IMG/VR virus record: IMGVR_UViG_2563366891_000016
Length of the DNA stretch: 40,687 bases
Source: a virus
Lineage: Duplodnaviria > Heunggongvirae > Uroviricota > Caudoviricetes
Reading direction: 5' to 3' (one strand)
A program made the position numbers and the translations under genes. This document shows, piece after piece, positions 10,499 through 16,425 of this stretch; position 1 is the first letter of the stretch; each line of letters starts with the position of its first letter. Below the pieces are notes generated by a model that ran no database searches, was not told the origin of the DNA, and worked only from the letters and a program-made list of their open reading frames with translations.

Positions 10499-10987
10499 AT
10501 GAGTCTTTTGAATGACGTTCAGAAATTCATTGAAGCCCATCCGGGGTGTACTTCCGGAGACATTGCGGATGCTTTTGCAGGTTACTCACGGCAGCGCGTT
10601 CTGCAGTCAGCAAGCAAGTTACGTCAGAGTGGGCGTGTGGCTCACCGTTGTGAAGGAGATACACGCAGACATTTCCCACGCCTTACTGAGAGAGCGCAGG
10701 AGCCGGAACCACAACCAGTTCGTGAAACCAGACCTGTGCGCAATTTCTATGTCGGCACTAACGATCCCCGGGTGATTTTGTGCCTGACCCGCCAGGCGGA
10801 AGAACTGGAGTCAAGGGGCTTATACCGTCGTGCTGCAACCGTGTGGATGGCGGCATTCCGTGAAAGCCACTCCCAGCCAGAACGAAACAATTTTCTGGCA
10901 CGTCGTGAGCGGTGCTTACGGAAAAGCAGCAAGCGCGCTGCATCGGGTGAAGAGTGGTATCTGTCAGGGAATTACGTGGGGGCTTAA
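10499..10987 (+). CDS. PerC/ANR-family regulator-like protein
   Basis: Motif EELESRGLYRRAATVWMAAF resembles the recalled PerC signature; start coupled to the O stop; stop overlaps the dam start (TAATG). Confidence 0.4.
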   Translation: MSLLNDVQKFIEAHPGCTSGDIADAFAGYSRQRVLQSASKLRQSGRVAHRCEGDTRRHFPRLTERAQEPEPQPVRETRPVRNFYVGTNDPRVILCLTRQAEELESRGLYRRAATVWMAAFRESHSQPERNNFLARRERCLRKSSKRAASGEEWYLSGNYVGA

Positions 10988-11640
10988 TGAGTAATAAATA
11001 TTGCCGGGCGCTGGTGGAACTGCGGAACAAACCAGCCCATGAACTGAAGGAAGTGGGCGATCAGTGGCGCACGCCGGATAACATTTTCTGGGGAATTAAC
11101 ACCCTGTTTGGCCCGTTTGTCCTGGATCTGTTTACTGACGGTGATAACGCCAAATGTACCGCGTATTACACGGCGGAAGACAACGCGCTGGCGCATGACT
11201 GGTCAGAACGTCTTGCGGAGCTTAAAGGTGCTGCCTTTGGTAATCCCCCATACAGCCGCGCCAGTCAGCATGAGGGGCAATACATCACCGGCATGCGTTA
11301 CATCATGAAACATGCCAGTGCCATGCGTGATAAAGGCGGGCGCTATGTTTTCCTGATCAAAGCTGCCACCAGCGAAGTGTGGTGGCCGGAAGATGCAGAT
11401 CATATTGCTTTTATTCGCGGGCGTATTGGTTTTGAACTGCCTGCCTGGTTTATCCCGAAAGATGAGAAGCAGGTGCCGACAGGCGCTTTCTTCGCTGGTG
11501 CTATTGCTGTTTTCGACAAGACCTGGAAGGGACCGGCAATCAGCTACATCGGGCGCGATGAACTTGAGGCATGTGGTGAGGCGTTTCTGGCGCAGGTTCG
11601 CCAGCAGGCGGAAAAACTGGTCAGGGAGATGGCGGCATGA
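10987..11640 (+). CDS. Phage DNA N6-adenine methyltransferase (Dam-like)
   Basis: GNPPY catalytic motif; ATG overlaps the upstream stop. Confidence 0.7.
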   Translation: MSNKYCRALVELRNKPAHELKEVGDQWRTPDNIFWGINTLFGPFVLDLFTDGDNAKCTAYYTAEDNALAHDWSERLAELKGAAFGNPPYSRASQHEGQYITGMRYIMKHASAMRDKGGRYVFLIKAATSEVWWPEDADHIAFIRGRIGFELPAWFIPKDEKQVPTGAFFAGAIAVFDKTWKGPAISYIGRDELEACGEAFLAQVRQQAEKLVREMAA

Positions 11641-14188: not shown

Positions 14189-14941
14189 ATGAACCTTGAA
14201 GCCTTACCGAAATATTACTCCCCGAAATCTCCAAAACTGAGCGATGATGCACCGGCGACAGGCTCTGGTGGTTTAACAATTACGGATGTGATGGCTGCGC
14301 AGGGGATGGTGCAGTCGAAAGCACCGCTTGGGTTTGCCTTATTCCTGGCAAAAGTTGGTGTTCAGGATCCTCAGTTTGCGATTGAAGGTCTGCTCAATTA
14401 CGCGATGGCACTGGATAACCCGACATTGAATAAATTGAGTGAAGAAACCCGGCTACAGATCATTCCTTACCTTGTGAATTTTGCCTTTGCTGATTATTCC
14501 AGGTCTGCGGCAAGTAAGGCTCGCTGTGAGCATTGTGCAGGTACGGGATTTCATAATGTATTGCGCGAAGTGGTGAAACACTCCAGAAGCGGGGAGTCTG
14601 TTATCAAGGAAGAGTGGGTGAAGGAACTATGTCAGCATTGTCATGGTAAGGGAGAAGTCAGCACAGCGTGCAGAGGGTGTAAGGGTAAAGGTATTGTCCT
14701 GGATGAAAAAAGGACCCGGCTTCATGGCACGCCTGTTTATAAGATTTGTGGGCGTTGCAATGGAAACCGGTTTAGCCGTTTACCAACCACACTGGCGCGG
14801 TGTCATGTCCAGAAGCTGGTACCAGCCCTGACTGATTATCAGTGGTACAAAGGATATGCAGATGTCATTGATAAACTGGTGACAAAGTGCTGGCAGGAAG
14901 AAGCATATGCTGAGGCGCAATTAAGAAAAGTGACGAGATAA
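14189..14941 (+). CDS. Late antitermination protein Q-like (zinc-finger repeats)
   Basis: Last early gene, directly upstream of a promoter-plus-terminator leader and the lysis cassette; repeated CxxCxGxG motifs; ATG at 14189 with ggag RBS. Confidence 0.55.
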   Translation: MNLEALPKYYSPKSPKLSDDAPATGSGGLTITDVMAAQGMVQSKAPLGFALFLAKVGVQDPQFAIEGLLNYAMALDNPTLNKLSEETRLQIIPYLVNFAFADYSRSAASKARCEHCAGTGFHNVLREVVKHSRSGESVIKEEWVKELCQHCHGKGEVSTACRGCKGKGIVLDEKRTRLHGTPVYKICGRCNGNRFSRLPTTLARCHVQKLVPALTDYQWYKGYADVIDKLVTKCWQEEAYAEAQLRKVTR

Positions 14942-14972
14942 ATGATTTTCGCCGAAGATAGCGACATGATTC

Positions 14973-15001
14973 TTGCATTTTTCAAAAAATCTGGTTAGGA
15001 T
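14973..15001 (+). promoter_or_regulatory. Putative late promoter PR' (-35 TTGCAT, 17-bp spacer, -10 TAGGAT)
   Basis: Located just after the Q stop and before the tR'-like terminator. Confidence 0.4.
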
Positions 15002-15047
15002 TCTCCTAACGATGGGCTTTGTGTGTCTACCGTTGATAATCTTCAAG

Positions 15048-15071
15048 AAACCGCCACCGAGCGGTTTTTTA
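15048..15071 (+). terminator. tR'-like intrinsic terminator
   Basis: Stem aaaccgc/gcggttt with 6-nt loop, followed by a T-run. Confidence 0.65.
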
Positions 15072-15229
15072 TTGATGTCAATTGTGTTTTTAAGGCTCTC
15101 CTTCCTTAAAGTGTGTTGTACAAAAAACTGGCAGCCAGCTACGCTCATTTTGAAAAAGTGACACCCTTCAATGTTTCTTTTGAATGGAATTGCTACCCAT
15201 AAATCTCTATCAAAAACAGGAGAGCATAT

Positions 15230-15472
15230 ATGGTGGAGCGTTGTTCTGTTTGTGAGCAGTCATTAAGTTATTCACGAGAAGTTGAACAAGATGGCGTTGA
15301 ATATAAATCTTGCCCAAAATGTTCTGCTGATGCCGGAGTGCACGTTTTTTATAAAACAATAGACTTTGGTTATAGGGATATGGGAGACGGAAGGCATATC
15401 GTTCAGTCATGGTGTCCGGCTTGTCGTTCTGGTGAAAAACCTTCTATACCACCAGCATTTAAATGTTGTTAA
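15230..15472 (+). CDS. Small zinc-ribbon protein (80 aa)
   Basis: ATG with AGGAG 7 nt upstream; Cys pairs CSVCEQ, CPKC, CPAC and a C-terminal CC; flanked by tR' upstream and its own terminator downstream. Confidence 0.5.
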   Translation: MVERCSVCEQSLSYSREVEQDGVEYKSCPKCSADAGVHVFYKTIDFGYRDMGDGRHIVQSWCPACRSGEKPSIPPAFKCC

Positions 15473-15491
15473 CTCAATGAATTATAAAAAG

Positions 15492-15516
15492 AGGCTGCCT
15501 GTGGGCGGCCTTTTTT
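15492..15516 (+). terminator. Intrinsic terminator
   Basis: Stem aggctgcc/ggcggcct (one mismatch) followed by a run of 6 T. Confidence 0.55.
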
Positions 15517-15603
15517 GTGCACTACGCAACTTTTGCGACTCAGCGCTATAACCAGCTTCTTTCCCTTCACTCGTTGCACTTCCGATAACCGGAGGTGGGA
15601 ATT

Positions 15604-15945
15604 ATGAAAATGCATAACGATCCTCATTCCTGGTCTGACTTACTTGAATTATTACAGAGCTGGTGGCGTGGAGACACACCGCTGGGCGCAGTAATTATGT
15701 CGATCGTTATGGCTGGCTTGCGCATTGCCTATTTTGGCGGTGGTGGTGGCTGGAAGCGAAAAACGCTCGAGATTTTGCTCTGCGGCGCTCTGACGCTGAC
15801 TTTTGCATCCGCTCTTGAGTATGTCGGATGGCCTAAATCGCTTTCTGTTGCCATTGGTGGTGGCGTTGGGTTGATCGGTGTCGATGCTATTCGTGGGGCT
15901 GCAATGAGAGTAATCGGTAACAAGTTTGGTGGCTCTAAGGAGTAA
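15604..15945 (+). CDS. S: Holin (lambda S-like, dual-start MKM)
   Basis: GGAGG RBS 8 nt before ATG 15604, second Met two codons later; hydrophobic segments and a charged C-terminus; directly precedes the endolysin. Confidence 0.7.
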   Translation: MKMHNDPHSWSDLLELLQSWWRGDTPLGAVIMSIVMAGLRIAYFGGGGGWKRKTLEILLCGALTLTFASALEYVGWPKSLSVAIGGGVGLIGVDAIRGAAMRVIGNKFGGSKE

Positions 15946-15948
15946 TTT

Positions 15949-16425
15949 ATGCAGGTACTAAATTCCCAGCGTAAAGCTTTCCTTGATATGGTGGCTTGGT
16001 CAGAAGGAACGGATAACGGACGACAACCGACACGTAACCACGGTTATGACGTTATTGTCGGTGGTGAACTCTTCACTGATTACTCCGATCACCCTCGCAA
16101 ACTTGTCACGCTAAACCCCAAACTCAAATCAACAGCCGCCGGACGTTACCAGTTTCTTTCACGCTGGTGGGATGCTTACCGTAAACAGCTTGGCCTGAAA
16201 GATTTTTCTCCAGAAAGCCAGGACGCTGTAGCTCTGCAGCAGATTAAAGAGCGTGGCGCTTTACCGATGATTGATCGCGGTGATATCCGTCAGGCAATCG
16301 ACCGTTGCAGCAATATCTGGGCTTCACTGCCGGGCGCTGGTTACGGTCAGTATGAACATAAAATCGGTGACCTGATTGCCCGGTTTAAAGAGGCTGGTGG
16401 GGTGGTAAATGAAGTTGAGCTATAA
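15949..16425 (+). CDS. R: Endolysin, lambda R-like lytic transglycosylase (158 aa)
   Basis: Near-identical in length and sequence to recalled lambda R (QRKAFLDM.AWSEGTDNGRQ.TRNHGYDVIVGGELFTDYSDHPRKLVTLNPKLKSTGAGRYQ). Confidence 0.85.
   Translation: MQVLNSQRKAFLDMVAWSEGTDNGRQPTRNHGYDVIVGGELFTDYSDHPRKLVTLNPKLKSTAAGRYQFLSRWWDAYRKQLGLKDFSPESQDAVALQQIKERGALPMIDRGDIRQAIDRCSNIWASLPGAGYGQYEHKIGDLIARFKEAGGVVNEVEL

Follow-up and report, generated by a model that had tools for sequence, protein, structure and literature searches.

A cysteine-rich mini-protein between Q and the holin of an SfV-like prophage belongs to a family found beside DNA methyltransferase and restriction genes

The mini-protein gene and the late leader

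The window analysed here is the whole 40,687-nucleotide (nt) stretch of IMG/VR record IMGVR_UViG_2563366891_000016 (Caudoviricetes), an SfV/CPS-53-like prophage located at tRNA-Arg, with IntS, O-antigen glucosylation genes, an HK97-type head and a contractile tail. Between its antiterminator gene Q and the lysis genes lies a short open reading frame (ORF) encoding a cysteine-rich protein of 80 amino acids, here called the mini-protein. The mini-protein gene is under purifying selection, and its relatives are repeatedly found next to genes encoding adenine methyltransferases and restriction nucleases. The features of the region are collected in Table 1.

Table 1. Features of the Q to endolysin region of the window, and the Dam-family methyltransferase gene of the same prophage (E, expectation value)
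Feature	Position	Strand	Evidence or remark
Antiterminator Q gene, ydfT/SfV-Q type	14189-14941	+	Pfam Antiterm (E 1.4e-52); phrog_127 'anti-termination protein Q-like' (E 4e-108)
pR'-like late promoter	14973-15016	+	Alignment with lambda pR', SfV and relative L012
tR'-like intrinsic terminator of the short late leader	15045-15075 (hairpin 15045-15070)	+	Fold; SfV homologue annotated
Ribosome binding site (RBS), AGGAG	15218-15222	+	7 nt 5' of the mini-protein ATG
Mini-protein gene (80 amino acids, predicted zinc-binding)	15230-15472	+	ATG start; WP_001306866.1; phrog_7682
Intrinsic terminator directly 3' of the mini-protein gene	15487-15519 (hairpin 15487-15516)	+	Fold and U run
Holin, lambda S family	15604-15945	+	Phage_holin_3_1 (E 4.7e-28); phrog_126 (E 1.8e-40); first lysis gene
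Endolysin	15949-16425	+	phrog_90 (E 5e-64); next after the holin and followed by an Rz-like gene
Phage Dam-family N6-adenine DNA methyltransferase	10954-11640	+	Pfam Dam PF05869 (E 1.4e-45)

The initial annotation, made from the letters alone, had described an 80-residue Cys-rich ORF with CxxC pairs, a strong RBS and a terminator of its own, and all of these were recovered. A RefSeq coding sequence, WP_001306866.1, has the same coordinates in a 99.9% identical prophage of Escherichia coli strain 135, where it is labelled "hypothetical protein". The CxxC pairs are C5/C8, C28/C31 and C62/C65, and the protein of the window ends in C79-C80. None of the RBS columns changes across nine aligned relatives. 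Directly downstream of the gene the RNA folds into a hairpin of -19.6 kcal/mol (z = -4.6) that is followed by a U run. A hairpin is kept at this position in about 20 lambdoid loci, and compensatory changes are evident, since the stems differ yet stay mutually complementary (GGCUGCC/GGCGGCC, GGCUCGC/GCGGGCC and GGUUCGC/GCGAGCC). With an A run on one side and a U run on the other, this terminator is potentially bidirectional. A consensus terminator scanner missed both this hairpin and that of the tR'-like terminator, the folds of which are themselves clear; at the terminator after the gene, the ability of the flanking A run to pair with the U run may be the cause.

The ORF had furthermore been placed first after a PR'/tR' leader, and the alignment of the upstream region with lambda pR' agrees with this. 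A -35 hexamer TTGCAT (14973-14978) and a -10 hexamer TAGGAT (14996-15001) are separated by a 17-nt spacer, and the initial transcribed AACGATGGG at 15008-15016 is common to lambda, SfV and another relative. The hexamer positions and the AA(C/T)GATGGG motif are conserved among the window, lambda pR', SfV and relative L012. Because the hexamers are weak (3/6 and 4/6), the promoter is not listed by a consensus scanner. In lambda the sigma-70-dependent pause at pR' is the site of Q loading, and AACGATGGG would correspond to the element causing this pause, with its function here presumed from the homology to lambda. The tR'-like hairpin (-11.9 kcal/mol, z = -3.6) is followed by UUUUUUAUU, its U run, and the homologous sequence in SfV is annotated as 'putative rho-independent terminator'. 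The layout is thus Q (the RefSeq start of which maps to 14189), pR', a leader of about 65 nt ending at tR', a 150-nt spacer, the mini-protein gene, the second terminator and the holin.

No sigma-70-like promoter was detected on the plus strand within 14800-15700, including the interval between tR' and the ORF, by a crude scan that also misses pR', so that weak promoters are still possible. A search of the whole window against Rfam returned zero RNA family matches. The two terminators, and the lack of a visible promoter between tR' and the ORF, suggest that expression of the mini-protein gene is Q-dependent and late. Transcription would start at the lambda-like pR' and, without Q, stop at tR'. 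Q-modified RNA polymerase would read through tR', the mini-protein gene and the second terminator into the holin, and synthesis of the mini-protein would coincide with that of the late lysis and structural proteins. The second terminator may in turn shield the holin from leak past tR'.

Conservation of the gene and its protein family

The mini-protein ORF is a genuine gene. In pairwise codon comparisons with seven relatives the ratio of non-synonymous to synonymous substitution rates (dN/dS) was 0.04-0.17, with synonymous sites near saturation; this, the invariant RBS and an AlphaFold2 model of a small fold with a mean predicted local distance difference test (pLDDT) of 84 all support the gene. 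In several assemblies the close subfamily includes truncated or frameshifted copies (55 amino acids in P0019, 43 in P0261 and P0266), which fits an accessory gene that is occasionally lost, and the gene is dispensable, as SfV lacks it. Both observations could be taken to indicate a chance ORF or a decaying remnant without function. The substitution pattern effectively refutes this speculation; moreover, a profile search of 1.84 billion representatives gave 277 family members (E up to 1e-3) sharing the conserved ligand pattern, and E. coli, Salmonella and Morganella contigs, at least 1000 in number, carry the exact protein, which is labelled "hypothetical" in every case. The probability that the ORF is functionless is in our view close to negligible.

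A word-indexed search of 5.8 billion proteins revealed 20 close homologues of 78-80 amino acids with 57-99% identity. In their alignment C5, C8, C28, C31 and H38 are invariant and C62, C65 and C79 nearly so, which leaves eight conserved potential zinc ligands, seven Cys and one His. K26, S27, P29, S32, F46, G47, R49, Q59, S60 and R66 are also conserved. Eight ligands would suffice for two zinc sites, and the mini-protein is predicted to bind two zinc ions. The terminal CC pointed out in the initial annotation is present in the window but is not a feature of the family: position 80 is T, K, E or missing in relatives, and of the pair C79 alone is conserved.

The gene is rare, occurring in 24 of 5426 complete E. 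coli genomes. Searching 50,697 phage records with tblastn gave no match for the window protein, nor for a homologue from a P2-like prophage, and the gene appears to be confined to prophages that have never been isolated as phages (at least 1000 bacterial contigs against none of 50,697 phage records). Among plasmids a single Aeromonas record was found, which at 4.9 Mb looks like a chromosome.

The only family to which the mini-protein could be assigned is phrog_7682, of unknown function (E 7.2e-60, all 80 residues aligned to the 80 profile positions). The pattern of the wider family is C-x2-C ... L-x2-S ... KSCPxCS ... G-x-H-x-F/Y ... FG-x-R ... QS(W/Y/H)C-x2-CR ... C. Residues 4-39 resemble a classical zinc ribbon, in which C5xxC8 and C28xxC31 flank predicted strands at 17-20 and 23-27, an arrangement reminiscent of the two CxxC knuckles around a beta-hairpin in generic zinc ribbons (PF13453, TIGR02605). 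The generic ribbons differ in lacking the family-specific second half of the mini-protein (H38 ... FGxRxMGDGRxIxQSWCxxCR ... C79). The scores reached 14.9 bits for Zn_ribbon_TFIIB (PF13453; cut-off 22) and 19.5 bits for the FmdB family of NCBIfam (TIGR02605; cut-off 31.3). Because all zinc-ribbon matches fall under the curated cut-offs, the 'zinc ribbon' of the initial annotation stands as a description of the Cys pattern and not as a family assignment. The pairing of the zinc ligands is likewise uncertain, since short homologues of 59-62 amino acids keep only the CPxC (C28/C31) and FGYRDMGDGRxIxQSxCxxCR (C62/C65) parts.

Database and structure-prediction searches, which had been proposed for this protein, thus gave a family and a model of good quality but no characterised relative. 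In a Pfam scan run at E up to 1 no family scored above its cut-off, and helix-turn-helix (HTH), Com, Ogr and controller (C) protein families were all absent. The profile search against the Protein Data Bank (PDB) gave nothing below E 0.29, the model had no significant match among solved structures or predicted viral structures, and no PADLOC defence model matched. Several candidate identities were rejected individually. Lar was matched by phrog_6422 at E 0.7 only, its Pfam family PF14354 did not appear among the matches of the window protein (E up to 1), and PF14354 reached a chance-level E of 0.5 against one distant homologue. Identity with Mu Com is contradicted by the lack of a Com family among the Pfam matches (E up to 1) and by gene order, as a methylase usually precedes the mini-protein gene. 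A C protein of a restriction-modification (R-M) system is not indicated either, with no HTH family matched and a predicted structure that is mostly beta with short helices. An origin from an HNH (beta-beta-alpha-Me) nuclease, prompted by the CxxC...H...CxxC layout, received an hhalign probability of 1.9%. The isoelectric point (pI) ranges from acidic to basic across the family; for the enterobacterial subfamily, which is slightly acidic with a net charge of -1, it is about 5-7, and a general DNA binder is not supported by charge, the subfamily of the window being near neutral or acidic.

Stand-alone family members occur in several settings. One is located in the nin region of a lambdoid prophage, in the order Dam, mini-protein, NinG, Q. 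Others follow the gpA replication gene in the early part of P2-like prophages, next to the cargo hotspot that adjoins the portal gene, and yet others are found in Firmicutes and Bacteroidetes. In Photorhabdus (L038-L045, L049) a member occupies a conserved chromosomal site, flanked on one side by RidA, an HTH_3 gene and a HipA_C fragment, and on the other by two genes for SMR transporters and by G6PD. Neither phage nor methylase genes were found near the family member at this site, which is possibly what is left of a mobile island. The domain also occurs in fusions: it forms the N-terminal part of McrA-like HNH nucleases and is combined with a NOV_C/PD-T4-1-like nuclease, with a DGQHR protein of the DndB/DpdB type, with an HTH_3 DNA-binding domain in one homologue, and with the Tudor-like domain DUF3553.

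Methyltransferase and restriction genes around family members

Neighbourhoods were compared using simple ORF maps of 52 loci, with methylases identified by Pfam or PADLOC as seeds for phmmer. An amino-methyltransferase (N6-adenine/N4-cytosine type) is the immediate neighbour of the family member in 16 of 32 family clusters (80% identity) and lies within two genes in 18 of the 32; as background, 44 of 714 other ORFs of the same loci (6.2%) adjoin such a gene. These counts are based on crude gene calling and on loci that are phylogenetically non-independent beyond the 80% clustering. In the relatives the mini-protein gene is usually found 3' of the methylase, with a gap of 2-125 nt.

The neighbouring methylases belong to several unrelated families. 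Those in Xenorhabdus and Sodalis are of the MT-A70 family; there the methylase gene comes first, followed by the mini-protein gene and then the lysis genes, and two of these three loci have an identified Q farther upstream. An N6_N4_Mtase gene precedes the mini-protein gene in Proteus and follows it in Kosakonia, and phage Dam (PF05869) and, in Firmicutes, the D12 class are found as well. By similarity, the D12 enzymes come nearest to DpnM (PDB 2dpm, E 1e-81) and E. coli Dam (2g1p, E 1e-49). One cluster contains a D12 methylase, a Type II restriction endonuclease (PADLOC E 2e-127), the mini-protein and a second methylase. Another contains a D12-DpnII fusion, an N6_N4 methylase and the mini-protein, in an island that also encodes GmrSD and Mrr, and in a third a D12 methylase is followed by a nuclease of mini-domain-X-HNH architecture. 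By their gene content several of these clusters look like GATC-type R-M systems.

A protein of 174-180 amino acids without a Pfam family adjoins the mini-protein gene in P2-like prophages and in a genome of the Alteromonadales (L020 5393-5917, L024 702-1244, L046 5393-5917, L062 6159-6686). It carries FLEPCRG and IIITNPPF motifs and has sub-threshold matches to N6-adenine methylases, and has the appearance of a gamma-class DNA adenine methyltransferase of unusually small size.

These neighbourhoods could also be explained if the mini-protein were a small expression regulator, analogous to the C proteins of R-M systems or to Mu Com, that sets the timing or level of methyltransferase, nuclease or late gene expression by binding DNA or mRNA. 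Small zinc proteins are established as phage regulators (Mu Com, P2 Ogr), the family genes are located beside methyltransferase and nuclease genes and sometimes between M and R, and homologues are fused to HTH_3 and to the DGQHR domain of DndB/DpdB-like, regulator-type proteins. Com is a zinc protein that activates translation of the DNA-modification gene mom, com being located upstream of mom and overlapping it. Many family members, though not the copy in the window, resemble Com in being small, Cys-rich, presumably zinc-binding and late, and in being encoded beside a DNA-modification gene. In contrast to com, the gene usually follows the methylase without overlapping it, there is no sequence match, and the partners are methyltransferases of at least five families instead of Mom. 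Furthermore, none of the regulator families named above was matched, and in the window the holin is the only adjacent possible target, yet the gene is under strong purifying selection. Taken together, we find a regulatory role unlikely.

The Q-holin slot and the possible role of the mini-protein

The interval between Q and S had been described as a cargo site for Q-dependent genes, and the comparison across relatives supports this. SfV, the Q-pR'-tR' region of which is about 90% identical to that of the window, carries orf47 and a DNA methyltransferase gene in the same slot, followed by a terminator ahead of S. Nine further contexts of the close subfamily were surveyed. The mini-protein gene lies downstream of Q in eight of them; the ninth (L014) is the remnant of a prophage and has no Q. 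All nine have a holin or lysis cassette just downstream of the gene. These contexts span two unrelated Q families, at least three holin families and four endolysin families. Most relatives carry variable, mostly antisense cargo between Q and the mini-protein gene. The gene and its terminator behave as a constant 3' module while the upstream cargo varies.

The cargo of the Q-mini-protein interval (L002-L013, L027-L036) comprises Peptidase_M78 with HTH, GmrSD with HEPN, RelA_SpoT with NA37, PDC-M53A/B, a TIR-domain effector and several unknowns. The interval is a hotspot for defence-type cargo, and the window represents its empty form.

The stx genes of Stx phages, the expression of which depends on Q and pR', and the SfV cargo occupy the same slot on the same strand, behind Q, pR' and tR' and ahead of the holin. 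They likewise vary between related phages, and SfV shares the terminator before S. The window differs in carrying a single predicted zinc protein of 80 amino acids instead of a toxin or an enzyme, and in that the gene and terminator remain constant while other cargo is swapped in upstream. The initial annotation was therefore right about a variable slot; the family, however, is not tied to this slot or to lysis, as the nin region, P2-like prophages, R-M clusters and chromosomal sites also harbour members.

The arrangement also recalls the morons of HK97 and HK022, autonomous-looking units between conserved phage genes that end in their own intrinsic terminator. Were the gene a classical moron, the resident prophage would express it, either by transcription from the constitutive pR' leaking past tR' or from a promoter that escaped detection, and it would benefit the lysogen, for instance by superinfection exclusion or defence. 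The gene-plus-terminator layout, with the terminator insulating the holin, agrees with this, as do the prophage-only distribution and the fact that the gene borders the defence-type hotspot in relatives. On the other hand, the promoter-gene-terminator units of HK97 and HK022 have a promoter of their own, which was not found upstream in the window, and no PADLOC defence model was matched. The cargo is moreover variable and mostly antisense, in contrast to the constant mini-protein gene, which is thus not a component of any one system. A moron of this kind is decidedly unlikely in our judgement.

A holin or lysis cassette immediately follows the mini-protein gene wherever the close subfamily occurs in a lambdoid context, which could suggest that the mini-protein modulates holin timing. 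The adjoining holins and endolysins come from several unrelated families, however, making a specific partner unlikely, and the sequence has no hydrophobic stretch long enough for a membrane segment. Because homologues and fusions occur well outside the lysis slot, in the nin region, the P2-like early region, Firmicutes R-M clusters and chromosomal sites without lysis genes, and because of the methyltransferase adjacency, a role in lysis timing is very improbable. The earlier statement that this is not a lysis gene is in line with these observations.

The initial interpretation is broadly right but incomplete, and the strongest functional lead is the adjacency to methyltransferases. Since the family members are genomic companions of DNA methyltransferases and restriction nucleases, we tentatively favour, at slightly less than an even chance, an accessory protein made late under Q control and concerned with DNA methylation or restriction. 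The mini-protein might enhance or direct adenine methylation and so protect replicating or progeny phage DNA. Alternatively, it might block restriction by occupying the same sites or enzymes as the nucleases that carry a homologous domain. Lar of the Rac prophage and Ral of lambda, early gene products that act on Type I systems, combine restriction alleviation with modification enhancement. As small prophage proteins, Lar being of the zinc-ribbon type, they shift the balance of methylation and restriction towards the phage, which is the class of function suggested here. They differ from the mini-protein, which resembles them at chance level only and the family of which associates with Type II-like adenine methylases.

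Several observations weigh against a link to methylation or restriction. The window and its closest relatives have no adjacent methyltransferase gene. The prophage's own Dam gene, named 'phage N-6-adenine-methyltransferase' in RefSeq, is located in the nin-like region, 3.6 kb ahead of the mini-protein gene, and could be a functional partner in spite of this distance. Some relatives have no methylase within the 4-6 kb sequenced on each side, and some members are found in ordinary chromosomal neighbourhoods without one. The slightly acidic enterobacterial subfamily is unlike a general DNA binder, the Pfam, PDB and structure searches gave no similarity to any characterised protein, and the many partner enzyme families speak against one specific protein contact.

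What was already known is a catalogued hypothetical protein in a slot recognised as variable; the association of its family with adenine methyltransferases and R-M genes is new, and in the literature and sequence libraries searched we found neither a name for the family nor a description of this association. A more far-reaching proposal is that the family represents a hitherto undescribed domain with two zinc ions, dedicated to partnership with adenine methyltransferases (largely Dam/DpnM-like and GATC-type) and their restriction nucleases across Proteobacteria, Firmicutes and Bacteroidetes, the stand-alone form of which was captured by temperate phages as a late-expressed anti-restriction or modification-enhancing factor safeguarding progeny DNA. 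We consider this possible but doubtful. If true, it would add a new R-M component present in both bacterial R-M clusters and phages, and would explain why a tiny gene is retained at the head of the late operon despite the turnover of neighbouring cargo. Small proteins from phage cargo slots are a main source of new anti-defence and regulatory activities, and most are still labelled "hypothetical"; comparative genomics here provides a concrete, testable link between one such family and adenine methylation or restriction. If the link fails, the mini-protein gene would be an ordinary accessory gene in a variable slot.

Some further features of the hotspot and its surroundings were observed. In relatives a perfectly conserved 19-nt block, CTAACGCGTACGCAAAAAC, marks the exact end of the variable cargo (4845-4863 in L002, L003, L004, L005 and L007; 4855-4873 in L010 and L011). 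It contains the palindrome GCGTACGC, is conserved even where synonymous sites of coding sequence are saturated, and could mark a boundary of recombination at the cargo hotspot or be bound by a protein there; the window contains no copy of it. A pair of genes encoding NA37 (YejK-like, nucleoid-associated) and RelA_SpoT proteins is found near family members in two unrelated settings, a lambdoid prophage (L010/L011/L028, antisense and upstream) and a Ferrimonas chromosome (L066 5590-7658). In the window, Q also bears a DnaJ-type CXXCXGXG zinc-finger segment at residues 162-208 of its 264-residue ORF (PF00684, E 2.8e-8, above cut-off). The holin begins with MKMHND, in which the Met-Lys-Met at 15604-15612 is the dual-start motif of lambda S107/S105 for antiholin and holin.

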